From Pseudomonadota bacterium (GTDB taxonomy: Bacteria > Desulfobacterota > UBA8473): a DNA stretch of 64,000 nucleotides. The stretch's first letter is position 1, and each line of letters opens with the position of its first letter. The notes beneath the pieces were generated by a model. That model did no database searches, was not told the DNA's origin, and worked only from the letters and a program-made list of their open reading frames with translations. The translations under genes were made by a program, and so were the position numbers. This document shows, one piece after another, positions 16,973-53,637 of this stretch. The stretch lies in NCBI GenBank assembly GCA_043825855.1, contig JBDRRJ010000008.1, positions 1,551 to 65,550 on the forward strand, written 5' to 3'.

Positions 16973-16988
16973 AATGCCATATGTCTCC

Positions 16989-29920: not shown

Positions 29921-31032
29921 AGCTTATTGAAAAAATCCCTCACAGCTTTAATTACAATAGACACCTGTCCGTCTGTCATATCGCAATATAGAGGCAGTGT
30001 CAGTATCTCTTCGCCAATTTGTTCAGTTACTGGCAATGATGTTGCAAAAGGCTTGAAGAATGGTTGCAGATGGTTGGGAATGTAATGAATACCTGTCCCA
30101 ATACCTTTTTCTTTCAAAAATTTAATCATGTCTTCTCTTGCGCCATTTAAGATCCTGATAATATAAGTGAACGGCGCTGTTTCTTTGAGATTCCATGTGA
30201 GAATTTTCAAGCCATCAATATCCATAAAGGCATCATTATATTTTTGCACAATATCTTTCTTTCTCTTAATAAATGCCCCAACTTTTTTAAATTGCGCCAT
30301 GCCGATTGCGGCATTGATATTGCTCATGTGGTAACGATAACCCTGCATCTTTACTTCGTAAAACCAGGTGCGTTCATTGTGGTAGCGATGCCAGGTATCT
30401 TTATCGATACCCAATATCCTTTTGGTTCGGATTAATTCTGCAATTTTATCATCGTAAACAGTAACCGCACCTCCTTCACCACAAGTAAGATTTTTAATGG
30501 GATCGAAACTGAAGCATGCAGCGTCTCCAAAACTGCCGATTTTCCTTCCTTTATAGGATGACCCAAATGCATGCGCGGCATCTTCAATGACAGCAATATT
30601 GTTTGTTTTTCCGATTTCCATCAGCGCGTCCATATCGCATGCTTGACCGCAATAATGGACCGGCATTATTACCTTGGTCTTTTTGGTAATCTTTTTCCTG
30701 ACATCAAAGACATCCATATTAAGATTGTCAGGATTGATTTCACAGAATACAGGAACTGCCCTCAATGCAGTAATGACTTGAATACTGGCACAGAAAGTTA
30801 AAGAGGGAACTATAACTTCATCCCCTTCTTTTACACCGAAAGCATCCAAGGCAATATGCAGAGCAGTCGTTCCAGTATTGACAGCAAGAGCATGCTTTGC
30901 TCCTAAATATTCTTTAAGTTTGTTTTCAAACTCAAAAACAGTCGACCCCAAGCCAAGCCAACCTGTATCAAACACCTTTTTTATTTCTTCAAGTTCCTCA
31001 TTACCTATGGATGGTCTGGATACTGGTAACAA
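29917..31032 (-). CDS. DegT/DnrJ/EryC1/StrS-family sugar aminotransferase
   Basis: 371 aa. GDEVIVPSLTFCAS...EDAAHAFGS...SFDPIKNLT. Confidence 0.9.
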   Translation of the reverse strand: MLPVSRPSIGNEELEEIKKVFDTGWLGLGSTVFEFENKLKEYLGAKHALAVNTGTTALHIALDAFGVKEGDEVIVPSLTFCASIQVITALRAVPVFCEINPDNLNMDVFDVRKKITKKTKVIMPVHYCGQACDMDALMEIGKTNNIAVIEDAAHAFGSSYKGRKIGSFGDAACFSFDPIKNLTCGEGGAVTVYDDKIAELIRTKRILGIDKDTWHRYHNERTWFYEVKMQGYRYHMSNINAAIGMAQFKKVGAFIKRKKDIVQKYNDAFMDIDGLKILTWNLKETAPFTYIIRILNGAREDMIKFLKEKGIGTGIHYIPNHLQPFFKPFATSLPVTEQIGEEILTLPLYCDMTDGQVSIVIKAVRDFFNKL

Positions 31033-31057
31033 AGTTAACCTCCCTCATGATCCTATT

Positions 31058-31804
31058 TTATTTCAAACCTTTTATTCCAAAAAAGTTGCCTGCATTAATG
31101 CTTGCGCCGTGATATATTGGATAGGAAAGATTTTGATAGTAATAGATGAATCCTGCTTTTTGTAAGGCTTTTTTATATTCATTATCAGTATAATGATAGT
31201 TCCCAGAATCATCTGCTCTACCAAATAATATTGTTCGTATTTTCTTCTTCCAGTAATTCAAAGAAGTTTGTGAGAAGATGGGGGTGATCCTTTCGCATGT
31301 GATTAGGACCATCCCCTCTTGACGAAGCAGTGAATGTGTTTTGCTTAAAACATCTTGAATATTTTGAAACATATAAAGTGCCTGGCAAAAAATGACCGCA
31401 TCAAATTTATCGCATCCATCAAAATCTATATTTAAAAAATCACCAACAATAGGATTAAATTTTGACGCATTTCCTTTGAATTGCGTAAACACCAATGGAG
31501 CGATTTTCAATAATCGGTGTTCAGAAAAGTCTATTGCATTGACCTCAATTACTTCAGGAATTTTCGACAAAAGCGCTGACGTCCATGCAACGCCGGCACC
31601 TATCTCCAAAATGCGGCCACGAATGTAACCAAAAGCGGTAGCAAATTGCAGAGCATCTTCAAAACACTTTTGAAGGTTAGATTCATTTTGAAGAAAATTC
31701 ATCAACTTTGGATCTTCCGTATTTTCAATAAAGAATGGTTTTTTCTTTTCTTTTTCTATGTCGTTCCAGTAGCTTTTATTCACTTCACCCTTCGACTCTT
31801 TCAT
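31058..31804 (-). CDS. Class I SAM-dependent methyltransferase
   Basis: ILEIGAGVAWTSALLS motif I. Confidence 0.75.
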   Translation of the reverse strand: MKESKGEVNKSYWNDIEKEKKKPFFIENTEDPKLMNFLQNESNLQKCFEDALQFATAFGYIRGRILEIGAGVAWTSALLSKIPEVIEVNAIDFSEHRLLKIAPLVFTQFKGNASKFNPIVGDFLNIDFDGCDKFDAVIFCQALYMFQNIQDVLSKTHSLLRQEGMVLITCERITPIFSQTSLNYWKKKIRTILFGRADDSGNYHYTDNEYKKALQKAGFIYYYQNLSYPIYHGASINAGNFFGIKGLK

Positions 31805-33165
31805 TATTCAGAAACAACTGACTGAAAAAATTGGAGAAGTTTATCTTCCCACTGCTCATCAATGTTACATGGCCAATTAACGATGTTGTGGCCCACATGT
31901 TCAGATATTTTGCAATCGCCTGAGGTATAACCAATATCTTGTAAGCCATTTGCACAACATATCACTGGCGTTTTAAACCATGTCCCATCTGTTTCTATAT
32001 ATCGAAACATTTTTTTTAGATGATTAGAAGCATGAGGATGACAATAGGCAAAACGAAGAGGACAAATATCAACAGAAGAATCAAAGTAAATTTTAGGTAT
32101 ATAATTTTTTATTGATGAATTCTGAGCGATTTCAAGGTAGCGCCTCAAAATGTTTTTCCTACTTTTCTTGATATCTTCCCATCTTTCGATTTCCATTAAA
32201 CCTAATTGCGCTAAAAAAGCTGGCATCTTCGAAGGATATGGATAAACTGAAGAATAAATATTATCTGTCGGCCGAATATAATCCTCTTCTAAAAAAGTTA
32301 TTTTCTTTTCAGTCCACAATCTCTTAGCCAGTGTGCGCCAAACATTAAAAAAAACCAAGCGTGGATAGTTTTCAGGTGTATAATATTTTTCTTCAAATAA
32401 TAATTGATCGAAAAGTCTTTGCTGGTGTTCTCTTTTGAGCTGAGGCGAAGACTTTGAAAAACTTATAACTTTTTTGTAAAGCTTTTCATCGTTCGTATAT
32501 AGGAAACCACCTATTAAAGTATTCAAAGGTTTACTATGGTCTGTTGAAAATATTGCTGCATCACCAAAGTTACCAACCTTTGTACCATCTATTGAAGAAT
32601 CGAAGGTAATTGCACAATCCTCTATAACAAAGATCCCTTTTCTTCTTCCCAATTCAACTATTTCCTTGATCTTGCAGGGGATTCCAAAAGAATGCTGCGC
32701 AACAATTACCTTTGTGTGTGGTGTTATTTTCTTTTCGATTGATTCTGCTATTGATCCAAAGGTTACCTCATCAACATCTGCAAAAACAGGAGTCGCACCA
32801 ATGCGCCAGACAGCATTAGCCATTACCGAGCACGTAAAACCAAGTAAAATAACTTCATCGCCTAGTCCTATATTTAGCGACCGGAGGATTGAATAAAATG
32901 CCATTCTTCCAGCAGCATAGCTAATTCCTAAGCCAGGCCCAATTATTGATGCAATTTTTTTTTCATAAGCAAAGGTAATTTCTTGTTGAAAAGCAATATC
33001 AGAAAATAACGTTTTTTTAATTTGCCTAAGATGCTCATCTTTAAGATAAGGGTGTCCTTGAACAAACCCAAATCTATACGGCGACATGGAAGTTCTAATC
33101 ATGTTACCAATTTTAAAGACAAGACGTAAATTTGGGTTTAATTCAATCATCTTTAGTAGCGTCAA
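31804..33165 (-). CDS. DegT-like PLP-dependent sugar aminotransferase/dehydratase with N-terminal extension
   Basis: GDEVILLGFTCSVMANAV...IEDCAITFDS...STDHSKPLNT is a DegT-type layout. Confidence 0.7.
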   Translation of the reverse strand: MTLLKMIELNPNLRLVFKIGNMIRTSMSPYRFGFVQGHPYLKDEHLRQIKKTLFSDIAFQQEITFAYEKKIASIIGPGLGISYAAGRMAFYSILRSLNIGLGDEVILLGFTCSVMANAVWRIGATPVFADVDEVTFGSIAESIEKKITPHTKVIVAQHSFGIPCKIKEIVELGRRKGIFVIEDCAITFDSSIDGTKVGNFGDAAIFSTDHSKPLNTLIGGFLYTNDEKLYKKVISFSKSSPQLKREHQQRLFDQLLFEEKYYTPENYPRLVFFNVWRTLAKRLWTEKKITFLEEDYIRPTDNIYSSVYPYPSKMPAFLAQLGLMEIERWEDIKKSRKNILRRYLEIAQNSSIKNYIPKIYFDSSVDICPLRFAYCHPHASNHLKKMFRYIETDGTWFKTPVICCANGLQDIGYTSGDCKISEHVGHNIVNWPCNIDEQWEDKLLQFFQSVVSE

Positions 33166-33254
33166 GAAAAAGAAACATGGTGAAATATATTATGCTGCTT
33201 ACTTAACTGGCAGTTAATGCTAATTATATCGTGGTTCAAATCTCTTATATATTT

Positions 33255-33479
33255 TTGAATATCCCTATCTGGCATGCCGACTCTTATGACATCGGCACTA
33301 ACTTATTTCTCAATCTCCCAACCGCCAATAAGGCAGTCCAAGATCCTGACTTCAATCCCCATGTTCTCTATTACTGACGCTATGTAACCCAATCCTATAG
33401 GAGGCATAGTGTTTTTAGCCAGCGGATGAGGTGTAGAAAAACACGTGGGAACCATCAGTAAAACTTTTCTTATCTTCAC
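33255..33479 (-). pseudogene. B12-binding radical SAM gene relic (N-terminal 58 codons joined to a few C-terminal codons)
   Basis: The minus-strand GTG ORF 33303-33479 encodes VKIRKVLLMVPTCFSTPHPLAKNTMPPIGLGYIASVIENMGIEVRILDCL..., a B12-binding domain start. Downstream, ..SACQIG.. shares the 14-mer TATCTGGCATGCCG with the relic at 37881-37894. Confidence 0.5.
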
Positions 33480-33585
33480 TAACCAATCTCCATATTGTTG
33501 CTAATGACCATTACCTGATTATGCATACACTTTTGCCGTTTACATCGCTAAACAAATACACGACGGTCAACTCCGTCATATACTC

Positions 33586-35373
33586 TCATTGCACAACCTG
33601 ATTCCATACAGCTTCATGAAACTCCTCATCGATTATATCTGGATCTGGTCTGATAACGCTTTTACTATGCTCAAATGTCAACGAATCACTTTCAGTAACT
33701 ATTCGTTGAGGGAGATTCATACCAAAAAACGGATCGACATCGATTCTTTCAGGGATATATTTATATACCGTAATACCATTCATCAGGCATTCAATCGCCG
33801 CCGTTGTCCCCACATGAATCGCCCATCCTACCTTATCAAACCATTCATCAAGGGGACCTTTGATAAAAATAAAATTATCTGGCAGAGTTCCTGCATATTT
33901 CCTGACAATTTTTTCCGGCATATCAGGATGGGGCTTTAACAAGAACTTTTTGTCCCCCCAAGGCCTCCTCTTCAGATAAAATATCAAGTCTAAAGTATAT
34001 GACAGGACAGGAGAGAATAAAACCAATATGCTTTGTTCCTTTTTATCATTTCTTACATCTCCTTCTTTTTTTTCGCTTTTACTATATCGGAGAGACCCAC
34101 CATTATAAATCGGGCAGGTAAAGCCGCTTTTTTTTAATACTCTAGCCCAGGTATCGCCATTTGCAACAATAATATCAGGCTCCGGGTGGATGCCTTTCTC
34201 ATTTTCTCCCAAAAAATAATTTAAAAGAAAACAGGGAACTACAGTATGTTGATAGGCTATCATTTTACTACTTGATTCTGCCTTTTGCATACCCATTATG
34301 GCCATTTTATCCCATGGCTGGTTTTCGAATGGATAGATTATTGCCTTACAATTAATATCTGTTTCTTTGAAAAAATTATAAAATCCATAGTATAAGGCTA
34401 TATAATAGCATAATTTGCCTTTTTCCTTTATCTTTTCATTTTCAAAAACAGGATGTAAATCAAATCCACAAAAGTCAGGAAGTGCTTTTGCCCATTTAAA
34501 CGACACTGAGTGAAAGAACGAGCTTATAATGTCCGCTAAACTGATAAATAACAGAGTAGGAATAATCTCGCCGCTACGGTAAATTTTGTCCATAAACCGA
34601 GGCGGTATTTCCGGTGAAATCACAAAAACTGTTCGTAGGCCTTTTGTTTCATAAAATGTCTTCAGTTTTCCAAGATATATATCGGTGAAGTGGCCATCAG
34701 CAAAAGAGCGATCCTCAACCCACGTATACATTAATATGCTGGGACTGCTCTTAAAAAGATCTCGTAGTTTTTTTTTGTAATTCACGCCGAACCATTTGTT
34801 CAGTAGCCACATATTTAGATATCTGATGAGAAAAAGGAGCATCCTTGTCCAGGAAAAAAATACTGTTTTTAGCGTATAGCCTATACAGTTTGCCACACTC
34901 TTCTCGATGAGTATAGCAGGAGAATCCAGATTATTGGCACACGCCTTGAGAAGAGGCGGGTGTTCGACTATAACTAATCGTTTCTTTACACCTTTATCTA
35001 TCCATTCCTTTAAAAGAGTCAGAAGGCAGATATTTAAAAAAAGATCTGTGGAAAGTGGATTTTTATAAGCAATGTTAGTCCCCCACCAGAAAGGCTGTTC
35101 CTGCTTCTTTCCAATTTCAGCGATCCAGTCTAAGAAGGGCTTTTTATTTTTTATAGTGATATCTGAGAGTTCTTCGGCGTAATAATACCTATTCCCCTCT
35201 CCCAACTTTTTTATTACATTCTCACGAAGACAGGCATCTGTACCAAAGAAGGTCCATTCCCATTCGTGGTTAACGACGAATTGTTTGTATTTGTTAAGCC
35301 GAGTTAGCGGTATTATGATGATGTCAAGATCTTGAGTCATCTTGCTTATCGGAAAGGGGAAATTACCATACAT
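33586..35373 (-). CDS. Large orphan surface-carbohydrate biosynthesis protein, GT-B/TagF-like or ulosonic-acid-transferase-like (HP motif)
   Basis: 595 aa. C-terminal ...KKFLLKPHPDMP...WAIHVGTTAAIECLMNGITVYKY. It has the same architecture as 42979..44840 and 46358..48271. Confidence 0.55.
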   Translation of the reverse strand: MYGNFPFPISKMTQDLDIIIIPLTRLNKYKQFVVNHEWEWTFFGTDACLRENVIKKLGEGNRYYYAEELSDITIKNKKPFLDWIAEIGKKQEQPFWWGTNIAYKNPLSTDLFLNICLLTLLKEWIDKGVKKRLVIVEHPPLLKACANNLDSPAILIEKSVANCIGYTLKTVFFSWTRMLLFLIRYLNMWLLNKWFGVNYKKKLRDLFKSSPSILMYTWVEDRSFADGHFTDIYLGKLKTFYETKGLRTVFVISPEIPPRFMDKIYRSGEIIPTLLFISLADIISSFFHSVSFKWAKALPDFCGFDLHPVFENEKIKEKGKLCYYIALYYGFYNFFKETDINCKAIIYPFENQPWDKMAIMGMQKAESSSKMIAYQHTVVPCFLLNYFLGENEKGIHPEPDIIVANGDTWARVLKKSGFTCPIYNGGSLRYSKSEKKEGDVRNDKKEQSILVLFSPVLSYTLDLIFYLKRRPWGDKKFLLKPHPDMPEKIVRKYAGTLPDNFIFIKGPLDEWFDKVGWAIHVGTTAAIECLMNGITVYKYIPERIDVDPFFGMNLPQRIVTESDSLTFEHSKSVIRPDPDIIDEEFHEAVWNQVVQ

Positions 35374-35396: not shown

Positions 35397-36053
35397 CTAC
35401 ATTCTGGTATCGTCTTCTATTTTCCCGATTTGTTCTTCCAGTTGCGTTAAATTTTCCATCATGTATTTGCTTAATGCCATCAAATGGAAATTCTCTGGTG
35501 TTATTCTTAATACGAAAGGAATCCCTGAATCCCTTGCCGCTTTCTTATCAGATTCCGCATCTCCAACAAAAACTGTTTCTGTTTTCTGTAAACCGTATTT
35601 CTCCATAATATTAGTAACGATCTCCGTTTTTGTTGAAGGAGTCCCGAATATTTCTTTAAAATACTTTTTAATGCCTCTATGGGTCATTATTTCATCCAAC
35701 TCATCACCAGGGGTTCCTGACGCTATAAAAAGCATATATTCCCGGTATTTTTTTTCTAAAAAATCTAATGCACCATCCACAAAAGGCGCTTCCTTGACCC
35801 CACTTAGCACGATTTTGGAAAACTGTCGGCCCAATTCAGCTTCAATCTCTTCGTTATAGGGCTTTTGTAAGATGTTCTCAAAATAATAGCGGAATTTTAC
35901 ATACCTTGATATACCCATGTTCTTAAGATGATACAATACTATCTCTTCGACCTTGTCTGGCCATCGGGAAAAGAGGTTTTTGAAGGCCTCGGTTTTTAAC
36001 TGCGCTGATTCGATAATCACCCCATCAAAATCAAAGATGACAGCCTTAATCAA
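35397..36053 (-). CDS. HAD-superfamily hydrolase, subfamily IA (phosphatase/beta-PGM-like)
   Basis: MIKAVIFDFDGVIIES (DxDG motif I) ...VFVGDAESD (motif IV). Confidence 0.85.
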   Translation of the reverse strand: MIKAVIFDFDGVIIESAQLKTEAFKNLFSRWPDKVEEIVLYHLKNMGISRYVKFRYYFENILQKPYNEEIEAELGRQFSKIVLSGVKEAPFVDGALDFLEKKYREYMLFIASGTPGDELDEIMTHRGIKKYFKEIFGTPSTKTEIVTNIMEKYGLQKTETVFVGDAESDKKAARDSGIPFVLRITPENFHLMALSKYMMENLTQLEEQIGKIEDDTRM

Positions 36054-36720
36054 CTAGCACTCCTATAACGGTACAGGGAGCACCATCAGCGTCGCGGATG
36101 AAAAGAGGTAAGACTATCACCTCCTGAAGACTGGCTGTTTCCGCCGGCACAAAGAGATCTTCGATGATGAGAAGCGACTTACCGCTGTCCTCACCAAGCA
36201 ATATACGATGCGTTTCTCTCCCCATATCCCGTCTTGCGGGAGAGGCTATCGAAATGCAATCGACGCCTATTGCCCGTAAGGCTGGCATATTGTTTTTCAT
36301 CCATCGTGCGGCATCAGGAGCAAGACAGGGATTTTTGTGGCAGTAGGTATCAGTATCATTTCCCCTGAAGCGGCTGAAACCGGTCCGTATGATGACCAGA
36401 TCCGCATTGCACTTATCGGATAATCTTTGCACGTCCTCGATACCTATGACCTCTTCCATGCCTTTCGGGCAATCGAAGATCAAGGGTTTTCTAAATATCA
36501 GTTCATCAACAGTATACCCGTCAATGCTCTTACCCAAATCCCAGAAATGCCTCGGCGCATCAACATGAGTGCCCGCATGGTTCGAAAGTGAGATAAAGAG
36601 GGTATTGCAAGAATCCCCTTTTTTAATCGTCTTGACCTTTTCGATGACTACGGGTTTCGTCCCCGGATAAAGGGGCATCCCTTCAGTGATAGTATATGAA
36701 AGCCTTATGTATCGTCTCAT
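36046..36720 (-). CDS. Cyclase-family (kynurenine-formamidase-like) metal hydrolase
   Basis: ...NHAGTHVDAPRHF... motif. The Met at 36720 avoids overlap with the upstream gene. Confidence 0.75.
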   Translation of the reverse strand: MRRYIRLSYTITEGMPLYPGTKPVVIEKVKTIKKGDSCNTLFISLSNHAGTHVDAPRHFWDLGKSIDGYTVDELIFRKPLIFDCPKGMEEVIGIEDVQRLSDKCNADLVIIRTGFSRFRGNDTDTYCHKNPCLAPDAARWMKNNMPALRAIGVDCISIASPARRDMGRETHRILLGEDSGKSLLIIEDLFVPAETASLQEVIVLPLFIRDADGAPCTVIGVLVD

Positions 36721-36724
36721 GCGC

Positions 36725-37657
36725 CTATTTGTCTTGGTATCCGTGATCGTCACCATCATCCACGATTAGCCCGTCGTATGTAGGCAGCGTGTTAATCTCC
36801 TTGTAAATGTTCTGAATACATTTAAGGATGCCCTGTCCAATGTCTAAATATGTTTTGCTGACAATCCTCTTCGCCAATTTGGGGGCAAACGTATAGGGGG
36901 TTATTTCATAGTGATATTTATTATCTATAGGCAAATATTGTATTTCCACTTTATCATCAAGCATTTCTTTGAGCATCATAAGCAGATCCTTGACCTTCAT
37001 TTGCTGGTACCCGGTGATGATTACATGCTGATTGATAAATTCGTCGTGAAGTATCTCGACGCTGTTCTTTGCGGCATCGAAGACGTGAATGTATTCGCGT
37101 ATCTCCTCACCGTCCCCTTCCCGGATGATCCTACCTGAAGTAATCGCTTCCTTGATCGTCCTGTAAATGAAGTTTCTCTGGTCAGCCCGCGGGCCATACA
37201 AAGAACCAAACCGTAAAATAGTATAAGGCAGGCCGTATACTTCGTAATAGTTTTCTATGATAAGCTCGCAGGCCTGCTTCGTGCTTCGGTAAAAAGAACC
37301 TGACTTGCTGTACACATACAGGGTACTGGCATACACGAACCGCTTAATCTTTGCCTTCCGACAAGCCTCCAGGAGCACCGTATTTCCAAGAACATTGATC
37401 CGGATGCTTTCCATAGGCTTCTGGCTAGCTTCATCAATATCGGCTATACCCGCGAAGTTATAGACGATGTCACAGTCTCTAACGGCCTTTCCCACCGCTT
37501 CCTGATCTAATATGTCCAGTACAACCATTTTCTGGCCATTGCGGAGGCAGGAGGACTTTTTGATATCACAGACCACAACGTCGTGTCCTGCATCTGTCAG
37601 TGCATCAGCCACATGACTGCCCAGAAATCCGGCTCCTCCAAAAACAGCGACTTTCAT
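36725..37657 (-). CDS. NAD-dependent epimerase/dehydratase (extended SDR)
   Basis: MKVAVFGGAGFLGSHVADAL ... YRSTKQACE (YxxxK). Confidence 0.88.
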   Translation of the reverse strand: MKVAVFGGAGFLGSHVADALTDAGHDVVVCDIKKSSCLRNGQKMVVLDILDQEAVGKAVRDCDIVYNFAGIADIDEASQKPMESIRINVLGNTVLLEACRKAKIKRFVYASTLYVYSKSGSFYRSTKQACELIIENYYEVYGLPYTILRFGSLYGPRADQRNFIYRTIKEAITSGRIIREGDGEEIREYIHVFDAAKNSVEILHDEFINQHVIITGYQQMKVKDLLMMLKEMLDDKVEIQYLPIDNKYHYEITPYTFAPKLAKRIVSKTYLDIGQGILKCIQNIYKEINTLPTYDGLIVDDGDDHGYQDK

Positions 37658-37718
37658 AGTTTTGCCCTTCCCAATATAGAATTTAAAAACAGTTCTATCA
37701 AATAATTATTACCCTTGC

Positions 37719-38469
37719 CTATTCAGGATTTTCCTCTCCCCATCGCTGTTCCCTGTAAATTTTAGCATATCTGTATAATATTTCATCTCCCTCTGGAGTG
37801 GAAAATTCCGCTTTCTCGATCATAGGCCATTCTGACTCATCAAACTCCACGTATAAGGGGAACGTCCTCATCATTCCATCTATCTGGCATGCCGTAAAAT
37901 GAGGCATACCTAGCATTGATTTGGAAGTAGTATGCACCGTAAGAGCCTGCGAATCAAGCCATCCTTCCCGTATCGCTTCGTCCCTCAGCGTCGTTCCTCG
38001 ATAAGGGGTAAAGATGCTCACGGTAATTGCATCATATCCTTTTATCTGTTTCACTAAGCGTATCGTATCGAAGACCATCTCCCTTGTTTCATAGGGAAAA
38101 CCAATAATGCAGTTTATGCTGTAACTAATTCCACTTTTATCGATGGTTTCGAAACACCTAATAATATTTCCATTAGATATTTTCCGGCCAAGTTTATTTG
38201 TGCGAAATTTTTCGTTACCCGATTCAATACCGAAAAAAGCGCGAAAAAGCCCCACATCTTTCAGCTTTTCAAGGACATCTGCCGTACAATGCTCTGGTCT
38301 GGTATTGAACCAGAAAGGTATCGATCTCTTTCTGCGGACGGGCAAAAAAATCGACCTCGTAGCCATCTTTCCGAAGTACCCAGGCAAAGATCGCAATAGA
38401 AAGAGGAGTTACTAACATCATGGGGATATTTGGATATACAAGCAGAATCCTGAAATCAAATCTCTTCAT
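37719..38469 (-). pseudogene. B12-binding radical SAM gene, internally deleted and frameshifted
   Basis: Frame a carries MKRFDFRILLVYPNIPMMLVTPLSIAIFAWVLRKDGYEVDFF (B12-domain start). Frame b carries ..IPFWFNTRPEHCTADVLEKLKDVGLFRAFFGIESGNEKF... (the post-core rSAM region). The CxxxCxxC core is missing, and the junction lies near a T7/A7 run at 38354-38360. Confidence 0.7.
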
Positions 38470-38495
38470 TTCTCGTTTCTCAGAGAGCGTATTTG

Positions 38496-39413
38496 TTATT
38501 CAAGCCCTTTCAGCAAATTCATAACCGACTGCCGTTCCATCTCAATCCTTGATTCTTTTGCGTATGAGCCAATGTGCGCTGTCAAGAGCACATTTTTCAG
38601 TTCCGTGAACGGCCCCTTGTAGGGCTCTTCCATAAAAACATCCAATGCTGCACCCGAAAGATGATCGTTTTTCAAAGCTTCGTAGAGAGCCTCTTCATCA
38701 ACAACCCCACCTCTCGATACATTCACCAACCAAGCCCCCCTTTTTATTTTACCAATTTCATTCCTGCCCAGCACTTGCTCCTGCGAGGAAACATGGATAG
38801 TCACAATATCGCTTATTCTCAGAAGAGAATCCATTTCAAGCCTGTCTATATGGGCACCGATTATTTCCGTTTCCGATGTTCCGGCAATTATATCGTAATA
38901 GCGTATAGCACATCCGAAAGGAATCAACAATTCGGCGACCTTTCTACCAATACGCCCAAATCCAACAATGCCGACGCTTTTACCATTTATGAGGTTGCCC
39001 ATGTGCTTGTGCCAAACCCCACTGCGTATTTCTCTGTCGGTCATTGTGATTCTCCGCAGCATGTCGAGCATCAGCCCTATAGTAAGTTCGGCGACCGCGA
39101 GAGTCGGAGCGTCTGGTGTATTAAAAACCTTTATTCCTTTCCGTTTGGCCGCTTCTAGATCAACATTATCCATCCCCGTACCGCAACGCGATATCACTCT
39201 CAATCTGGGAAGCCTACCCATCACCTCATCGTCAATCGTTTCCGTCCCTGCGATAATGCCAATTACATCGCAGTAAAGATCAGATATCTCCTCCTTTTTC
39301 AATTTGCGCCCATAAGGATTGAAGACCACTTCACAGCCTCTTTCAGCCAGTGGCTCAAGCACTGTTTTGTCATACTCACCAAAAGAGGTTGTTGTTATGG
39401 CTATTTTTTTCAT
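38496..39413 (-). CDS. D-isomer-specific 2-hydroxyacid dehydrogenase (SerA/GyaR-like)
   Basis: ...GIVGFGRIGRKVAE... NAD motif, and ...NVSRGGVVDEEAL...LDVF..EP. Confidence 0.9.
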   Translation of the reverse strand: MKKIAITTTSFGEYDKTVLEPLAERGCEVVFNPYGRKLKKEEISDLYCDVIGIIAGTETIDDEVMGRLPRLRVISRCGTGMDNVDLEAAKRKGIKVFNTPDAPTLAVAELTIGLMLDMLRRITMTDREIRSGVWHKHMGNLINGKSVGIVGFGRIGRKVAELLIPFGCAIRYYDIIAGTSETEIIGAHIDRLEMDSLLRISDIVTIHVSSQEQVLGRNEIGKIKRGAWLVNVSRGGVVDEEALYEALKNDHLSGAALDVFMEEPYKGPFTELKNVLLTAHIGSYAKESRIEMERQSVMNLLKGLE

Positions 39414-39423
39414 ATCTACCGCC

Positions 39424-40398
39424 TCATTTTTTCGAGCAGACTACCATCATATGCGAACTCAGGAGATTTTGTGCCACAAAGGCCTGCATATTTTCCTTAT
39501 CCTGCTCCGATGCGATCTGCAGGTAATTTCTCCAGAATCTGTCATGGATGAGATCAGAGTTGTTTTCCATGATACTAATGTCCAGTTTCCCAGGAGTGGT
39601 GATCTCGATGACCTTAAAGTCCAGACGTTTCAGCAATATCTGCACAGACTTTGGATTGAAGAAATTTAGATGGTGAGGAGGCGAGATGGATTTTGAGTTT
39701 TCCCACAATACTTGTATATCTATACCCATACCGCTTAAGGTGGTAAATATAAACAGGTCATTCTTCTGCATCAAGCCGTTAAGAGTGCCAAGAAAATCCG
39801 TGGGATCATGCAAATGTTCGAACAACTCGAAACTGACAAAAGCTTTAGTTTCTTTCGGGATAAGATCCGGTGATATATCTTCCAGAAACTGTTCCATGAC
39901 AGACAGTCCTTTATCCCTGCACACCTTCGCCAGATGCACAGATGGCTCAATGACAACAATATCAAGGTCCATAATCTTCTGTATTTCTTCTGCAAAAGTT
40001 CCGTATCCCCCGCCGATATCGAGTATCGTTTTCGCCTGTGAAAATCTTTCTACCTTTTCCTTAATCAGGCGGGCCTTTGGTTTCCAGAGCTTTTCCCGCC
40101 GCGCTGATTCTGTCTCCTTGTAAAAAGTGGTTGCCCAGTATCTCGTCGACGGCGAATCGGTATAATAATGGTCAAACGCTTCCTTTGCAGGTCTCGGACT
40201 GACAAACAGCGTCAGGCATTCGGAGCATTCTTCATAACTGAATCCCTTTTTATTGAACGCATAAACTCCCTTTGCCCCACAAGCGGGGCAGGATATATGT
40301 ATGCGAGGTGCATTCTCGAAATAAGTTGTAACATCCTGCTCAGCAAGTTTAAGATACTCGTTAAAAATGTTCTGTGGTCGTATTTCATTTTCTTTCAT
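39424..40398 (-). CDS. Class I SAM methyltransferase with N-terminal Cys4 zinc-ribbon
   Basis: CPACG...CSEC followed by ILDIGGGYGTFAEE motif I. This resembles the layout of sugar C-/O-methyltransferases. Confidence 0.75.
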   Translation of the reverse strand: MKENEIRPQNIFNEYLKLAEQDVTTYFENAPRIHISCPACGAKGVYAFNKKGFSYEECSECLTLFVSPRPAKEAFDHYYTDSPSTRYWATTFYKETESARREKLWKPKARLIKEKVERFSQAKTILDIGGGYGTFAEEIQKIMDLDIVVIEPSVHLAKVCRDKGLSVMEQFLEDISPDLIPKETKAFVSFELFEHLHDPTDFLGTLNGLMQKNDLFIFTTLSGMGIDIQVLWENSKSISPPHHLNFFNPKSVQILLKRLDFKVIEITTPGKLDISIMENNSDLIHDRFWRNYLQIASEQDKENMQAFVAQNLLSSHMMVVCSKK

Positions 40399-40410
40399 AT
40401 CAACGCAATC

Positions 40411-41232
40411 TTATCTTCTCCGTCCCCAGTCTTTATATAATTTGCTATAAGTGTTGTAAAGCGTGTCATTATTCATAATTTTTTCCACAACATAAAGATC
40501 ATCAAGTGTGTCAACCGATTTGGAATCAAATCTGGTTGGTATCATTTTTACCTTGAGACCGTTCTCCAGGATTCTCATCATATCAACGGATTCAATAATC
40601 TCGAGAGGCGTTTGAGGGGTCTCGTTGTATTCGAGCAGAAAGTCCCTTCTGAAAGGGATGATACAGACCTGTTTGTACATAGATACATCCTTTACACCTT
40701 TTTTCCTTGAAGGAATTGGTTCCCTTGAAAAATAAAGGGCATTGTTGAATTTATCGACAACCACTTTTACCTCGTTCGGGTCTTCGAACTCTTCAATGGT
40801 CGTTATTTTCCCAAGCAGGTTTGTTATCAGAATATTTGTATCGTCAATCATTGGCTGTACCGCTTCATCGATCATCTCGGGGAGGACCAGCGGCTCATCA
40901 CCCTGGATCATTACCATCAGATCTATTTTTTCACCTGTCTCCGCCTCTATTTTCAGCATGGCTTCGGCACACCGGTCACTCGCCCGTTCATGGGTATCCT
41001 TCGTCATGACTGCCTTGCCCCCGATAGAGTTAACATACTCGACAACTTCCTGGTCACATGTGGCTACATACACTGCCGATAATGATTTACTCATTACGCT
41101 CCGGTGATAAACATGCCCGATCATGGGCATCCCACAGATCTTCGCAAGAGGTTTCCCGGGAAACCGTGATGAAGCCATCCGAGCAGGAATAATACCTATA
41201 ATGTTTATCCCCTTATCCTTTGATTTATTCAT
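40411..41232 (-). CDS. KdsB-like cytidylyltransferase (CMP-ulosonic acid synthetase family, CTP_transf_3)
   Basis: IIGIIPARMASSRFPGKPLAKICGMPMIGHVYHRS ... QGDEPL ... SVDTLDDL is the KdsB-type pattern. Confidence 0.8.
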   Translation of the reverse strand: MNKSKDKGINIIGIIPARMASSRFPGKPLAKICGMPMIGHVYHRSVMSKSLSAVYVATCDQEVVEYVNSIGGKAVMTKDTHERASDRCAEAMLKIEAETGEKIDLMVMIQGDEPLVLPEMIDEAVQPMIDDTNILITNLLGKITTIEEFEDPNEVKVVVDKFNNALYFSREPIPSRKKGVKDVSMYKQVCIIPFRRDFLLEYNETPQTPLEIIESVDMMRILENGLKVKMIPTRFDSKSVDTLDDLYVVEKIMNNDTLYNTYSKLYKDWGRRR

Positions 41233-42205
41233 TTCCAAGCTCCACATCTGTAAAGTAATATTTCGTTGAGTTCAAATATTTAAACGGTCTATATAATAGC
41301 TTAGCCAAACGGCCTTTTCCTTTAAAGCTCATGACAAAACCTTTTTTATATATAGCTTTATATAAAAGCATACTTTCAGATAATTTAAACAATTTATCAT
41401 CCGTGGCTTTTTCGCATAAATAAAGGGCATAATCTGAGATTCCATAAATTTGACATAAGGAAATCGCCTTCATTATTTTAGCTTTTTTGTAATCATTTTT
41501 TTGATTCATCATTACATCCATAAGAGCTTCATATGTTTTAAAATACAAAGCATCTGCAAAAATCAACTGCCCTTTATCTATTCCGCTATTAATGCCCGCT
41601 TTTCTTTTAAAATAATATTTTTTTAAATCAAACAAAGAAAAACCTTTTTTTCTCAAAAAAATATCAACATCTGAAAACAACGGTTGATTATTATAGAGTT
41701 GAGCAAATTCCACCTCTACTTCTATTCCGAATATAAGGTTATCTATAATTGCTGATGCACCCCTTAAAATGTCCAGTTCAAATCCCTGCGCATCGAGTTT
41801 TATGAAATCTGGGTCTTCAACACCATGACGGGTTAGGAGTTCCATAGTTAATTGTTTAGCATGGAATGATATTTCCCCCACGACATCCAGTCTTTGAGCA
41901 TCCGGGAATTGCTTCAAAAAGTCATGATTGGGCTGGTAAAAGGAAGAACACTCTTGTTTTCTTGTTAAAAAGAATTTTATATCTCGGTCGGAGTCGGCCA
42001 GAGCCTCGTTTATATATACAATGGATTCTGTGGATTGCAGTTTTCTGAAAGCACGTACATCCGGCTCAAACCCCAACACTTTTAACAATCCTTTTGCCTT
42101 TTTAAATCTTTCTGGGAAATCGCCACTTGCCCCTATATCGATCATAGTAATGGGATTTTTTTCAAGTATACTCCTTAAAAGGGGATGATTAAAAATATCG
42201 GCCAT
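41225..42205 (-). CDS. FkbM-family methyltransferase
   Basis: MIDIGASGDFPERF ... FIKLDAQGFELDILRGA. Confidence 0.7.
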   Translation of the reverse strand: MADIFNHPLLRSILEKNPITMIDIGASGDFPERFKKAKGLLKVLGFEPDVRAFRKLQSTESIVYINEALADSDRDIKFFLTRKQECSSFYQPNHDFLKQFPDAQRLDVVGEISFHAKQLTMELLTRHGVEDPDFIKLDAQGFELDILRGASAIIDNLIFGIEVEVEFAQLYNNQPLFSDVDIFLRKKGFSLFDLKKYYFKRKAGINSGIDKGQLIFADALYFKTYEALMDVMMNQKNDYKKAKIMKAISLCQIYGISDYALYLCEKATDDKLFKLSESMLLYKAIYKKGFVMSFKGKGRLAKLLYRPFKYLNSTKYYFTDVELGNE

Positions 42206-42208
42206 TTC

Positions 42209-42982
42209 TCACCTCAAATTATGTCCATTTTTTATACTGTCTAAAGTTTCTCTACATTTACAGCCAAGATAAAGCGTGTCAAGACCAACAGCAAGAAAAG
42301 AATACCCCTTGCCGATATAAACCTTCGTCTTTTCCGGATCCGGCTGAACGATGTGAAATCCCTTGGGTTTCTTTAATGCGTCACATATCGTTTCGTATCT
42401 TTTCAGGGCCTCCTTTACTTCTGGCCTTTCAAATTCACCGGGCCACCCGAGAGAACCGGATAAGTCATATGGCCCGATAATGGAACCATCTACGCCGGGC
42501 GTGCTCAATATTGCTTCCAGATTTTCTATGGCGCTAATATGTTCAATCTGCACAATGACGATGCTATTTTCAGCAACCCATTTCTTGTATTCTTCGAATC
42601 CAAACCCGTATTTTTGCGCACGTGCCAGACCAACGCCCCGTTTACCCACGGGCGGGTACTTGACTGCGGCAACAGCCGCTTCGGCATCAGCTTTCGTATT
42701 GACCATGGGAACGATGACACCATGAGCACCGGCATCCATAACACGTTTTATGAGATTAGCGTTATTTTCGCCCACTCTGACAAAGGGAGAAACGCCACTT
42801 AATTCTATAGCACGTATCATTTCCTGTGCCTGACTGATCGTTGTGGCACTGTGCTCCATATCCACAGTCAGCCAATCGAATCCAGCTTGTACCATAATCT
42901 CGGCAATAGCAGGATGGGCAAGTGTAATCCATGAACCAACGGTCAGTTCCCTGTTCATTATTTTCTTATTCAAGCCATTCAT
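42209..42982 (-). CDS. HpcH/HpaI-family class II (metal-dependent) pyruvate aldolase
   Basis: GSWITLAHPAIAEIMVQAGFDWLTVDMEHS...VRV...MDAGAHGVIVPMVNT...YPPVGKRG...VQIEH is the HpaI/YfaU/GarL signature. Confidence 0.85.
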   Translation of the reverse strand: MNGLNKKIMNRELTVGSWITLAHPAIAEIMVQAGFDWLTVDMEHSATTISQAQEMIRAIELSGVSPFVRVGENNANLIKRVMDAGAHGVIVPMVNTKADAEAAVAAVKYPPVGKRGVGLARAQKYGFGFEEYKKWVAENSIVIVQIEHISAIENLEAILSTPGVDGSIIGPYDLSGSLGWPGEFERPEVKEALKRYETICDALKKPKGFHIVQPDPEKTKVYIGKGYSFLAVGLDTLYLGCKCRETLDSIKNGHNLR

Positions 42983-43578
42983 CGCCTTCCCCCTTGCAAA
43001 GTTCTTTTTAGTACAGCTAATGCCCTTTGACTGCTCTTGCCGTCATCGATATGCGTACCGTACAATTTTATATACTCCCTGTTATCACAGTCGGCAGGAT
43101 ACTCTCCCGTTTGCAGATATACTTCCAGTCTATTCATCAAAGCTTCAGCATGGTCCGCACATACAGCCCTTTTCATAAGAAGGTGCAGATGTACCCTCGG
43201 TGGTGATATAACAGAGGTCAATACAAAAACCGGGAGCCGCGTTGCTATCGCCTGCAGCAATGTCGTTGTCGGTGAATCTATCAAAACGACGTCATGGCTG
43301 TGCAAGAGTTGGGTAAAAATTGGGTTTCGTATAATATTGATGCGTTCAATGCCTTTGAGGGATGCAACCCATGGCGGGTCTTCATCAAGCACATCTGCAC
43401 CAGGATGGAGTTTTAATGTCAACGATATTTTTTTATTCTCTCTGCTTATTTTCTTCATCCTCTCGACAATAATCATCTGTTCTTTGTAATATATTCGATC
43501 GCTGAAGGGCGGATTAAAGCCGCAATACCAGCCGTTGCGATAATAATTTGTAATAACGTATAAAATGCGTATCGTCAT
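42979..43578 (-). CDS. Orphan protein equivalent to the C-terminal half of the large GT-B-like orphans (HP motif)
   Basis: ...ISLTLKLHPGAD...HDVVLIDSPTTTLLQAIATRLPVFVL. An ATGA overlap joins it to the upstream ORF. Confidence 0.55.
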   Translation of the reverse strand: MTIRILYVITNYYRNGWYCGFNPPFSDRIYYKEQMIIVERMKKISRENKKISLTLKLHPGADVLDEDPPWVASLKGIERINIIRNPIFTQLLHSHDVVLIDSPTTTLLQAIATRLPVFVLTSVISPPRVHLHLLMKRAVCADHAEALMNRLEVYLQTGEYPADCDNREYIKLYGTHIDDGKSSQRALAVLKRTLQGGRR

Positions 43579-44840
43579 CCCCTCGTCTCCATGCTAAGAT
43601 TGTCAAGAATTGCACTGCCTATTGATTCTATGACAATATTCTCAGGCATACCAGAGAGCTTGTACGCATTTTTCACGCCATTGCCAAAGGTGAGCAATAT
43701 GTTAGTTCCGGTTTTATCAAAAAGATCATGCCGCTGTGTTATATCCTTTTCATACCATACCGCACCATACTGCCATGATAAAACAGGAATGGATTTTGCG
43801 ACAAAAAACTGTTTTATAATATAGTTTAAGTAGTCCGGTGTTGACATACTCAGTACTGCAATCGGCATTTTATTGAAACAGATTTTTTCCATCTTTTCTA
43901 TTATTGCCCGTGCCACAGAAGGCCCCTTTTCTATTATCCATCGTATTCTGTCTCCAAGTATATCAAAAAAATCAATACCTTCATGAACCATATTGGCAAA
44001 GAAATATAGGCATAGTTCATTGCCATCTATTTCTGACACGTTATCCTCTGTATATATGTTGCCAAGGATAGATTCGTTCAAAAAAAGAATCGATATATTA
44101 GAGCTGATGAGAATTCGTAAAATATCCGGCCATTCATAGGGATTATTCATCACCATAATATGTTGCTTTTTATTTGTCCCGATGAGATTGAGTATGTTCT
44201 GCAGCATTTTTTGTTGATAACTTATCACCACACTTCTTAGCAAGATATTGGAGTTCACGACTTTTCTCAATACGTTCTTGATGCTATCAACTTTTTTATG
44301 GCGTGTTTCAGTATGTAAATTCTTATTCGGGTCCAACACAGGAATCACACTGTCAGCCCATTCAGACAATAACAGCAATCTGCCCCACAACGTTTCATGC
44401 TTGCCAAAGCCAAGGCCGAATAACGTCCACGGCTGAAGTGGCGTCATATGGGTATAAATTTTATCTTTACATACGTCAAATTTAGTTAAAATCTTTCTTA
44501 TCCACAACGCACGGCTGAGAACGGCATCGAAAACCATGCCGAGCTGCCAGAGGTGGAAAAGAAAAGGTCGGATATTCCACTTTTTCAGAAAAGGATCTAT
44601 TTCTTGCAATCTATCATCTATCTTTCCACATACATTATGCAACTGTTCAAACTGCACCTTGCATGCGCCCTCTATTTCATTCAAACCTACATAGTCTTCC
44701 GGAATGGTATATGGAAGGTTCTTTCCAGCAAGATAATGCATTGCTGATGGGCCAAGCGCCAACCAGTCAGCATCAGCACAGTCGGTGTTTTTAAGAAAAT
44801 GCTCGACCTGGTATGCATGTTCCACAAAAAAAGTATTCAT
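43575..44840 (-). CDS. Orphan protein equivalent to the N-terminal two-thirds of the large GT-B-like orphans
   Basis: 421 aa. ..VLSWQYGAVW... lies at the position matching AYQHTVV in 33586..35373. Confidence 0.5.
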   Translation of the reverse strand: MNTFFVEHAYQVEHFLKNTDCADADWLALGPSAMHYLAGKNLPYTIPEDYVGLNEIEGACKVQFEQLHNVCGKIDDRLQEIDPFLKKWNIRPFLFHLWQLGMVFDAVLSRALWIRKILTKFDVCKDKIYTHMTPLQPWTLFGLGFGKHETLWGRLLLLSEWADSVIPVLDPNKNLHTETRHKKVDSIKNVLRKVVNSNILLRSVVISYQQKMLQNILNLIGTNKKQHIMVMNNPYEWPDILRILISSNISILFLNESILGNIYTEDNVSEIDGNELCLYFFANMVHEGIDFFDILGDRIRWIIEKGPSVARAIIEKMEKICFNKMPIAVLSMSTPDYLNYIIKQFFVAKSIPVLSWQYGAVWYEKDITQRHDLFDKTGTNILLTFGNGVKNAYKLSGMPENIVIESIGSAILDNLSMETRG

Positions 44841-49856: not shown

Positions 49857-50625
49857 AATAGCTGCACAAAGGAATTTTATCCCTATTACCCTCTACATGG
49901 TGTTTAATCCATTCTTTTCTTTTTGAGCCATTCCATATGTTTATTAAAGAAGTTGTGTTTGCATCTCCGATAACCCCCAATCTTTTAGGATCAAATCTCA
50001 CGCAAATAGAGACTTCTCCAAGCCTGTTAATTGCCATATGATTCAATATCTCCAAGCATATTCCTATCTCTGGTACAGTTGGTTTCTTCTGATATTTGAA
50101 GCTTCCGAGGGGGTTATGTAAAATTCTTGTGGCGATAATTCCATCTAATTTATGCCACCTTTCAGTATTAACTTTCCCCAAACATCTATATATTATGTTT
50201 GGTTTTCTATTTCCTTTAATCTCAATGAACCGCTTGACAATTTCATACTGCTCATCGCTGTCGGGATCTTTTTCTATAACAGATATGGTTATTGTATCCA
50301 GATTATCTATGACCTCATCGGCTTTCTCCACTAACAATTTGGCATTAGTATCCACGCATTTTATCTGATTTTTAAATAATCCCACTGCTTCTCCGAATCT
50401 GGGATAAAGTAAAGGTTCTCCATTATTATGAAATTGAACTACTATTCCTTCAGGTAGCTGTTCGGCTATTTTTTTAACCAGTTCATAATCCATATCGCCA
50501 TAATTCATGGCTATTTCCGGATATTCTCTGTCTATCTTTCTTCTGCCGCACATCCAGCAGTTCTTATTGCATCTGCTGGTCAATTCCAGATGGATACAAT
50601 ATAATCCATTAAAGTTTGAACTCAT
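49822..50625 (-). CDS. Small radical SAM enzyme (CxxxCxxC) with C-terminal Cys pair
   Basis: HLELTSRCNKNCWMCG cluster motif, and C-terminal ..IPLCSYCDYWG. Confidence 0.85.
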   Translation of the reverse strand: MSSNFNGLYCIHLELTSRCNKNCWMCGRRKIDREYPEIAMNYGDMDYELVKKIAEQLPEGIVVQFHNNGEPLLYPRFGEAVGLFKNQIKCVDTNAKLLVEKADEVIDNLDTITISVIEKDPDSDEQYEIVKRFIEIKGNRKPNIIYRCLGKVNTERWHKLDGIIATRILHNPLGSFKYQKKPTVPEIGICLEILNHMAINRLGEVSICVRFDPKRLGVIGDANTTSLINIWNGSKRKEWIKHHVEGNRDKIPLCSYCDYWGVPTGLQ

Positions 50626-50669
50626 TTTTCTCTTGCTCTAATTGTGTAGAAATATTCTGCTATATATCT

Positions 50670-51659: not shown

Positions 51660-51697
51660 ATCATTACAGCCTTTCCGTTATTGTAATTAAGTAATTA

Positions 51698-52390: not shown

Positions 52391-52402
52391 ATTAAACTCT
52401 CT

Positions 52403-53251: not shown

Positions 53252-53309
53252 CTTTATTTCTCCTCGTTTTTCTGCTAAATCTAATATAATAACCTACTTG
53301 TGTAATCAT

Positions 53310-53425
53310 AAAAAATTCCCTTTTCCGCTCTCTGGGGCAGTTTTTTTGACCCATCTGGGGGACTTGCTCCAGGCATTTTCGGAAACTCCCGAATCTAAGC
53401 ACTTTATAAGTGCAATGATATTTTT
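53310..53425. repeat. Family-B element, degenerate/partial copy
   Basis: 53310-53392 aligns with 5555-5634 (AAAAATTCCCTTTTCCGCTCTCTGG..TTTTTGACCCATCT..GACTTGCTCCAGGCATTTTC). The inner hairpin is deleted. Confidence 0.5.
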
Positions 53426-53616: not shown

Positions 53617-53637
53617 CTAGTTATGTTTGGTTATGGA

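Follow-up and report, generated by a model that had tools for sequence, protein, structure and literature searches.

To our knowledge, all sugar acids activated with cytidine monophosphate (CMP), i.e. 3-deoxy-D-manno-octulosonate (Kdo), the sialic, legionaminic and pseudaminic acids and ketodeoxynononic acid (Kdn), are made by phosphoenolpyruvate (PEP)-dependent synthases of the KdsA/NeuB type, which is why genome surveys for "sialic-acid-like" sugars search for NeuB. Here we describe a surface-glycan cassette in which a KdsB-like cytidylyltransferase is accompanied by an HpcH/HpaI class II pyruvate aldolase instead. The cassette occupies positions 35397-42982 (minus strand) of a 64,000-nucleotide stretch of a Pseudomonadota bacterium genome (assembly GCA_043825855.1, contig JBDRRJ010000008.1, positions 1,551 to 65,550), hereafter called the window. 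We give an even chance to the reading that it encodes a self-contained route to a CMP-activated 2-ulosonic acid whose skeleton is built by the class II pyruvate aldolase and not by a PEP synthase of the KdsA/NeuB type. The new element would be a CMP-ulosonate biosynthesis with a different C-C bond-forming enzyme. This combination of aldolase and cytidylyltransferase genes is not described in the full-text literature searched; most subscription journals lie outside that coverage, and an earlier description is possible. Papers on the nonulosonates of Tannerella (PMC5378307) and Leptospira (PMC3438082) make no mention of an aldolase.

In the proposed mechanism the HpcH aldolase would add the enolate of pyruvate, or possibly of hydroxypyruvate, to an aldehyde that is probably phosphorylated. 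A phosphatase of the haloacid dehalogenase (HAD) family would then take off the phosphate, the KdsB-like enzyme would couple the anomeric C2 hydroxyl to CMP, and two methyltransferases would O-methylate the sugar. Subsequently, the GT-B-fold protein p595 would pass the sugar to the growing repeat unit, which Wzx would flip and Wzy polymerise. Three further enzymes, a dehydrogenase resembling phosphoglycerate dehydrogenase (PGDH), a GalE-like short-chain dehydrogenase/reductase (SDR) and a cyclase-like hydrolase, would serve to supply the carbonyl partner or else to modify the product. Every chemical step, as well as the identity of the sugar, is what we infer from the genes. A 3-deoxy product is only one option; a hydroxypyruvate or oxidative route would give a 3-hydroxy ulosonate. 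Chain length and stereochemistry are not deducible, and of the products considered (Kdo, 2-keto-3-deoxygluconate (KDG), an ulosaric acid resembling 3-deoxy-heptulosaric acid (Dha), 2-keto-aldonates) none can be confirmed from sequence.

The aldolase, its cytidylyltransferase and their distribution

The eight genes named in a first-pass annotation of this DNA are present and co-directional, with overlaps of 3-8 nt or gaps of at most 100 nt. Each scores far above the Pfam threshold of its claimed family, so that the profile check which that annotation had called for upheld all eight families. Its start for the KdsB-like gene (40411-41232) agrees with the independent gene call in a second assembly, Logan SRR26275510 (locus L001), where the gene order is the same; the longest open reading frames (ORFs) of this gene and of the cyclase-like gene extend further (Table 1). 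Missed at that stage were a radical-SAM pseudogene, the linked GT-B protein p595 and the C-terminal shortness of the nearby NeuB.

The aldolase matches PF03328 with 132.4 bits (gathering cut-off 25) and remains below the NCBIfam equivalog cut-offs for HpaI (197 of 369 bits), GarL (176 of 407) and RhmA (168 of 441). It is about 36% identical to YfaU (2vws). According to the alignment, His44, Arg69, Glu147 and Asp173 correspond to the metal- and pyruvate-binding residues His49, Arg74, Glu153 and Asp179 of YfaU and are invariant in 20 homologues; the clade additionally has invariant motifs of its own, RGVGLARAQ and GPYDLSGSLG. Homologues are plentiful and unusually conserved, with 64-88% identity among the best 120 matches and 49-88% across many phyla. 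The catabolic class II pyruvate aldolases YfaU (RhmA), GarL and HpaI thus share the fold and the metal/pyruvate residues with the cassette enzyme, which differs from them in its glycan-related biosynthetic context, where synthesis is the likely direction. Automatic annotation names the homologues RhmA or GarL, and one could accordingly suspect a catabolic operon for 2-keto-3-deoxy sugar acids of the YfaU/GarL type which lies in a glycan locus by chance. We give this idea next to no credence: a dehydratase, a transporter and a catabolic regulator were not found around the aldolase, the cassette genes are flanked by a flippase, a polymerase and glycosyltransferases, and the linkage to a CMP-transferase is conserved.

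To quantify this linkage, one genome per species (185,579 species) was scanned with two clade-specific aldolase peptides, and of 600 candidates at least 551 were confirmed as relatives. All counts out of 80 given below refer to the best 80 loci of these relatives, which were searched with the window proteins (tblastn) and by ORF clustering. The 80 loci span about 20 bacterial and archaeal phyla. Carriers comprise nitrifiers, syntrophs, marine Bacteroidota, Campylobacterota, Firmicutes, Dehalococcoidia, Patescibacteria, methanogens and many uncultured phyla, with Methanoperedens, Methanoregula, Thermoplasmatales, Hadarchaeum and Woesearchaeota on the archaeal side. In 72/80 loci (51 of the 55 with full flanks) a CTP_transf_3 gene shares the strand of the aldolase gene and is no more than 5 kb away from it, and the KdsB-like type specifically is found at this distance in 54/80; where the latter is missing, a NeuA/PseF-like enzyme usually takes its place (about a quarter of loci). 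Conserved co-occurrence in other genomes, which the first-pass annotation had set as a test of its own proposal, is thereby borne out. Within 8 kb of the aldolase there is a 2-hydroxyacid dehydrogenase in 62/80 loci, an SDR in 51/80 and a HAD protein in 41/80, and the cyclase-like gene (29/80), Methyltransf_23 (21/80) and FkbM (8/80) are less frequent. Nitrosomonas and Nitrosospira, for example N. briensis Nsp8 (L057), have stand-alone units of five genes, namely those for the KdsB-like enzyme, the aldolase, the dehydrogenase, the SDR and HAD. An Acuticoccus plasmid (NZ_CP094833, 40686-45138) carries the same five gene kinds, here with a NeuA-like cytidylyltransferase and an aldolase only 43% identical; it was the sole true relative in a search of plasmids, the remaining matches being YfaU. 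Carriers that are in culture include Nitrosospira briensis, Syntrophomonas wolfei subsp. methylbutyratica JCM 14075, Draconibacterium mangrovi GM2-18 and Acuticoccus sp. I52.16.1.

The cytidylyltransferase belongs to PF02348 (161 bits) and to the KdsB subfamily NF009905 (313 bits, cut-off 255), stays marginally below the kdsB equivalog TIGR00466 (154.0 bits, cut-off 155.2) and has the E. coli capsule enzyme KpsU (1gq9) as its closest PDB match. To inspect the pocket, 62 cassette-linked KdsB-like proteins were aligned with E. coli KdsB, E. coli KpsU and Coxiella KdsB. The CTP/Mg2+ residues R10, R15, K19, Q98-G-D100-E-P and D235 are kept in all 62 clade members. The sugar domain, in turn, shows the clade substitutions D50C, S74R, H181Q, Y185I, Y187F, E210D and Q211M, of which H181Q and Q211M occur in 100%, E210D in 98% and Y185I in 89%; the window enzyme has C50, R74, K164, Q181, I185, F187, D210 and M211 for canonical D, S, R, H, Y, Y, E and Q. 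H181, E210 and Q211 are residues that we take to be further parts of the Kdo site in KdsB. In E. coli KdsB, Q98 and Y185 hydrogen-bond the C5 hydroxyl of Kdo (PMC12199768). The cassette enzymes therefore appear to form a clade distinct from canonical KdsB, for which ordinary Kdo is an unlikely substrate, both because of these changes and because archaea, Firmicutes, Dehalococcoidia and Patescibacteria are among the carriers of the cassette. These groups are not known to have lipopolysaccharide (LPS), and their carrying the cassette argues against a role in LPS Kdo. Judging from the alignment, the gained Arg74 may indicate an extra anionic group on the sugar product.

A Kdo aldolase activity, which joins pyruvate to D-arabinose or arabinose 5-phosphate, is known, and the cassette could in principle be an alternative or salvage route to ordinary CMP-Kdo, with the KdsB paralogue in the capsule role of KpsU. 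The match to KpsU, the passed NF009905 cut-off and the isomerases of the SIS-domain family in some loci fit this proposal. We nevertheless regard it as very improbable, since Y185, the contact to the Kdo C5 hydroxyl, is lost together with H181, E210 and Q211, the SIS proteins are GmhA-like (SIS_2, about 200 aa) and not KdsD-like, and the dehydrogenase, the SDR and the methyltransferases would be superfluous for Kdo.

A linked PEP-dependent synthase is likewise not a regular companion: KdsA is absent from the cassette, and only 20/80 loci have a NeuB gene no farther than 10 kb from the aldolase. Hence the cassette, usually found without NeuB, is not an appendage of a nonulosonate pathway, in line with the earlier statement that the module is not simply the nonulosonate pathway of its locus. 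N-glyceroyl and di-O-methylglyceroyl nonulosonates are known, however, and the cassette might instead make a non-sugar acidic substituent of the (di-O-methyl)glycerate, lactate or hydroxyglutarate type, or decorate the nonulosonate of NeuB and NeuA. Acyl transfer requires activation of a carboxylate (as coenzyme A, AMP or acyl carrier protein derivative), which is not what a KdsB-type enzyme does. The combination of PGDH-like dehydrogenase, HAD and two methyltransferases would suit a methylated glycerate, and in Tannerella the genes for the glyceroyl group are unassigned (PMC5378307). The window, L002, L027 and L043, moreover, have NeuB, NeuA and aminotransferase genes alongside the cassette. 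Against this stand the absence of NeuB within 10 kb in 60/80 loci, the fact that the aldolase has a CTP_transf_3 enzyme of its own almost everywhere, and the free-standing five-gene units of Nitrosospira and the Acuticoccus plasmid. We therefore consider this reading, in either form, improbable.

The nonulosonate-like genes of the window lie at 49822-53251 (minus strand) and encode a short NeuB-like synthase, a PseF-like cytidylyltransferase, a class IV aminotransferase (branched-chain / D-amino-acid type) and a short radical SAM/SPASM protein. The NeuB/NeuA pair described earlier as canonical does exist, but its NeuB (282 aa) reaches only 245 bits against a cut-off of 400 and covers positions 1-277 of the 329-position model, the C-terminal part being missing. 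Upstream of its aldolase cassette, L002 has counterparts of the NeuB, NeuA and aminotransferase genes with 52-72% identity, and L027 and L043 each have counterparts of two of them. The module does not represent a textbook nonulosonate pathway.

Variant cassettes and replacement of the aldolase

The gene for the protein p595 comes immediately after the cassette in the window, and likewise in L002, L007, L027, L034, L035, L054, L082, L088 and L090-L095. It has no Pfam match and no PDB sequence match, with a weak TIGR04326 match only. Its AlphaFold2 model (mean predicted local distance difference test score, pLDDT, 90.5) retrieves GT-B glycosyltransferases and NeuC-type enzymes with Foldseek (E down to 3e-9; probability 1.0, target-normalised template modelling (TM) score about 0.45). 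In view of its fixed position after the cassette, the predicted fold makes p595 a candidate transferase for the CMP-activated product. Long DegT homologues (48-53% identical) follow directly after p595 in L088-L091, L093 and L094, and methyltransferase homologues (47-51% identical) follow the DegT gene in L088, L089, L091 and L093. As a side observation, the block of p595, long DegT (430-453 aa), methyltransferase and a second DegT (window 29917-35373, minus strand; L088-L095) is conserved from bacteria to Methanolobus and a Pacearchaeota metagenome-assembled genome, often beside dTDP-sugar genes (RmlA-like, 3,4-ketoisomerase-like).

In the p595-anchored loci, a CMP-transferase and a phosphatase always precede the p595-DegT-methyltransferase block, together with one of three types of gene: the HpcH aldolase (window, L090, L094), an HMGL-like protein, or a radical-SAM/SPASM and adh_short pair. 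The HMGL-like protein (577-581 aa) holds the aldolase position in L091 and L092, where the HpcH aldolase is absent. Its best matches are 4-hydroxy-2-oxovalerate aldolases (DmpG/BphI) and the Bacteroides "putative aldolase" 3dxi, i.e. pyruvate-specific class II aldolases. Its sole companions in both loci are a KdsB-like enzyme (262 bits against NF009905 in L091) and a HAD protein, followed by p595. By analogy, this layout would repeat the logic of KdsA, KdsC and KdsB with an aldolase in the place of KdsA. The DmpG/BphI family differs from HpcH in its HMGL-like TIM barrel; it does not occur in the window and is relevant solely as evidence that the aldolase can be replaced. Of all the computational evidence, it is the occupation of one and the same genomic position by two unrelated families of pyruvate aldolases that most strongly supports an aldolase-made ulosonate. 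A chemistry of the phosphonate type (FrbC- or PEP-mutase-like) was considered separately and rejected, as no PEP mutase was found and the matches of the HMGL-like proteins are to DmpG aldolases and not to homocitrate synthases.

The accessory genes come in two sets. Type A, present in the window, consists of the dehydrogenase, the SDR, the optional cyclase-like gene and the HAD phosphatase. Type B comprises the dehydrogenase, an oxidoreductase of the glucose-fructose oxidoreductase (GFO) family, a GmhA-like SIS isomerase and either a phosphatase of the inositol-monophosphatase (IMPase) family or an adh_short SDR with a dehydroquinate (DHQ)-synthase-like protein. The KdsB-like enzymes of the two types have an identical pocket signature, and their products are therefore probably similar. 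In eight loci (L018, L021, L029, L042, L048, L062, L063, L073) the aldolase adjoins a conserved set of five genes, i.e. 2-hydroxyacid dehydrogenase, GmhA-like SIS isomerase, adh_short SDR, DHQ-synthase-like protein and GFO oxidoreductase, and a phosphatase is absent. The DHQ-synthase-like enzyme may eliminate phosphate, leading to a deoxy or carbocyclic variant.

Accessory enzymes and an oxidative alternative

The dehydrogenase is nearest to phosphoglycerate dehydrogenases (TIGR01327 222 bits, below the cut-off of 454; best PDB matches 1wwk and human PHGDH). It has IAGTETI at the position of the PGDH motif VRSATKV, which we take to be the substrate-anion motif of SerA. In L095 it is part of a 588 aa CTP_transf_3::2-Hacid_dh fusion protein, which ties the dehydrogenase functionally to CMP activation; in the 80 aldolase loci, no fusions among cassette genes were found. 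The SDR carries the GxxGxxG and YxxxK motifs, has GalE-type nucleotide-sugar 4-epimerases as best PDB matches and matches the Azf model weakly. For the cyclase-like hydrolase, an optional member of the cassette, the PDB matches 8hmo, 4co9 and 5nnb place it nearest to kynurenine formamidase and isatin hydrolase. The HAD-IA phosphatase contains the DxDG motif, and its exchange for an IMPase-family enzyme in type B loci lets dephosphorylation appear as an integral step. As for the methyltransferases, the Methyltransf_23 protein weakly matches the NanM family of putative sugar O-methyltransferases and its gene, where present, usually adjoins the KdsB-like gene; the FkbM homologues adjoin the aldolase in the loci that have them.

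Between the dehydrogenase and the SDR lie the remains of a B12-binding radical SAM gene. Two segments of its L007 homologue can be aligned here, residues 5-68 with 38499-38320 (frame -2) and residues 319-510 with 38321-37740 (frame -3). The B12 domain and the radical SAM core are deleted, and about 64 N-terminal and about 190 C-terminal residues remain in different frames. Intact copies of 464-561 aa in the related cassettes L007, L025, L034, L036 and L095 suggest that other lineages C-methylate or deoxygenate the product.

These enzymes also allow for a different reading, in which the constant chemistry comes from the dehydrogenases and not from an aldol step with pyruvate. In an oxidative version, the SDR (GFO in type B) would oxidise C1 of an aldose phosphate, the cyclase-like enzyme would open the lactone and the PGDH-like enzyme would oxidise C2; after dephosphorylation, the product would be CMP-activated as a 3-hydroxy 2-ulosonic acid (2-keto-aldonate), with the aldolase only epimerising or remodelling it. 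In a hydroxypyruvate version, the dehydrogenase and the phosphatase would turn 3-phosphoglycerate into hydroxypyruvate, the nucleophile of the aldolase. For such a scheme, types A and B, with their common pocket signature and probably similar products, each provide exactly one candidate per step from non-homologous enzymes. The proximity of the dehydrogenase to PGDH, the fusion in L095, the retention of these genes in aldolase-free loci and the optional nature of the cyclase-like gene, as expected for a lactonase, point in the same direction, and Azf of Haloferax is a precedent for an extended SDR acting as sugar-6-phosphate 1-dehydrogenase. However, the pair of aldolase and CMP-transferase is the most constant element and also occurs without the dehydrogenase (L034, L035, L091, L092), the GalE-like SDR suggests a nucleotide-sugar substrate, the IAGTETI stretch departs from the PGDH motif, and the oxidative version has no clear job for a highly conserved aldolase. 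Taking both versions jointly, we regard this reading as unlikely, if a serious contender.

Several observations weigh against the aldolase-made ulosonate as well. The aldolase served as bait for collecting the loci, and its constancy is therefore partly by design. The loci L088 (Methanolobus), L093 and L095 have the radical-SAM/SPASM and adh_short pair and no aldolase, yet keep the dehydrogenase, the SDR, the HAD phosphatase, a PseF-like CMP-transferase, the methyltransferase and p595, as well as the cyclase-like gene except in L095; thus, the aldolase is not the sole way into this chemistry. The 2-hydroxyacid dehydrogenase has no necessary role in the proposed route, despite its frequency and its fusion to the CMP-transferase, and the phosphatase is missing from some cassettes. 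The original idea of an aldolase-made, tailored and CMP-activated ulosonate is thus supported in part, by the enzyme families, the gene linkage, the usual absence of NeuB, the aldolase replacement and the altered sugar domain of the cytidylyltransferase; the 3-deoxy nature of the product and the sequence of reduction, dephosphorylation and methylation stay hypothetical.

With these points taken into account, we propose tentatively, at just under even confidence, that hundreds of bacterial and archaeal species make a new class of CMP-activated 2-ulosonic acids by means of HpcH- or DmpG-type aldolases. If so, a whole group of acidic surface sugars would be invisible to NeuB-based surveys, the automatic names "KdsB", "GarL/RhmA" and "phosphoglycerate dehydrogenase" would need correction, and new aldolases and CMP-transferases would become available for the chemo-enzymatic synthesis of ulosonic acids. 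The cassette is widespread, and the five-gene unit from cultured strains can be tested directly.

The surrounding locus and comparison with known pathways

The cassette is part of one large surface-glycan locus which extends from about 10.8 to 55.7 kb of the window with every gene on the minus strand (Table 1). In 14 related loci the gene immediately upstream of the aldolase encodes a flippase. The NusA protein from the flank of the locus shares 60-65% identity with NusA from metagenome-assembled genomes of Deltaproteobacteria, Desulfobacterales and Thermodesulfobacteriota, and its nearest named match (79%) comes from a "Pseudomonadota bacterium" metagenome-assembled genome; the source is accordingly an uncultured and probably diderm bacterium. 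A Bacteroidota origin, considered on account of a weak match to BFO_1060 (see below), was rejected on the basis of this NusA placement.

Table 1. Features of the cassette, the surrounding glycan locus and its flanks (window positions; SAM, S-adenosylmethionine).
Feature	Position	Strand	Remarks
ValS	5765-8431		housekeeping gene flanking the glycan locus
Class I methyltransferase of the p595-DegT block	31058-31804	-	248 aa
Long DegT-family aminotransferase	31804-33165	-	453 aa; PF01041 covers N-terminal half only
p595, GT-B-fold protein	33586-35373	-	no Pfam match; fold search
HAD-IA phosphatase	35397-36053	-	218 aa; HAD_2 PF13419 1.7e-21
Cyclase-family metal-dependent hydrolase (kynurenine formamidase / isatin hydrolase fold)	36046-36759	-	Cyclase PF04199 1.8e-23
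Extended SDR, GalE-like / 4,6-dehydratase-like	36725-37657	-	310 aa; Epimerase PF01370 1.4e-41
B12-binding radical SAM pseudogene	37719-38499 (ORF 37719-38396)	-	profile matches to C-terminal half only
D-2-hydroxyacid dehydrogenase, PGDH-like	38496-39413	-	305 aa; 2-Hacid_dh_C PF02826 1.2e-48
Class I SAM methyltransferase	39424-40398	-	324 aa; Methyltransf_23 PF13489 7.8e-16; proposed accessory tailoring enzyme
KdsB/KpsU-like cytidylyltransferase	40411-41247 (longest ORF)	-	273-278 aa; CTP_transf_3 PF02348 4e-47
FkbM-family SAM methyltransferase	41225-42205	-	326 aa; Methyltransf_21 PF05050 5.4e-16; proposed accessory tailoring enzyme
HpcH/HpaI class II (metal-dependent) 2-oxoacid aldolase	42209-42982	-	257 aa; PF03328 1.9e-38
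Wzx-type flippase	48294-49856	-	weak PF01943 match
NeuB/NeuA pair	51698-53251	-	NeuB = 52403-53251
NusA	57312-58625		housekeeping gene flanking the glycan locus
IF-2	58746-61211		housekeeping gene flanking the glycan locus

Some further features of the locus are recorded here. The minus-strand genes for p421 (43575-44840) and p199 (42979-43578) correspond to one protein of 629-634 aa in L091 and L010; in the window its halves are encoded in two frames with an ATGA overlap, i.e. they represent a frameshift-split or a two-part gene, and a weak similarity links the C-terminal part to the Tannerella glycosyltransferase family BFO_1060. At 14630-18936 (minus strand), within the glycan locus, the E1 alpha and beta subunits of a pyruvate-dehydrogenase-type thiamine enzyme are encoded, with two aminotransferases, one of class I and one PseC-like, as neighbours; the GC content of 0.44-0.48 in this region, compared to about 0.38, suggests a mosaic origin. 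Lastly, about 800 bp at 53252-54062 are free of ORFs in the minus-strand frames, possibly a promoter region or a decayed gene, and separate the NeuB-like gene from a fused GFO-oxidoreductase/hexapeptide-acetyltransferase gene (54063-55655).

Compared to the pathways to nonulosonates and Kdn (NeuB/PseI/LegI, Kdn-9-P synthase and phosphatase, NeuA/PseF/LegF), the cassette shares the setting in a glycan locus, a putative CMP-activated product and, in the loci mentioned above, a NeuA/PseF-like enzyme in place of the KdsB-like one; Maf-like (MptE-like) proteins are found in some cassette loci and the GT-B protein p595 downstream in others. It differs from them in that most loci are without NeuB and the cassette is without a hydrolase of the NeuC/PseG/LegG type or a PseB/LegB set. 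The CMP-Kdo pathway (KdsD-KdsA-KdsC-KdsB; KpsF/KpsU in capsules) resembles the proposed route in joining a three-carbon 2-oxoacid unit to an aldehyde, in using a phosphatase and in the CMP-ulosonate step by the KdsB family, of which the cassette cytidylyltransferase is a true member. In contrast to CMP-Kdo synthesis, the cassette has an HpcH aldolase (in L091 and L092 one of the DmpG type) in place of KdsA or another PEP-dependent synthase; its phosphatase is of the HAD-IA or IMPase type and not KdsC, the pocket of its KdsB-like enzyme is changed (Y185I etc.), and it is found in archaea and monoderm bacteria. If the proposed reading holds, surface sugars of the "sialic-acid-like" kind would thus have a third biosynthetic logic, independent of the others.

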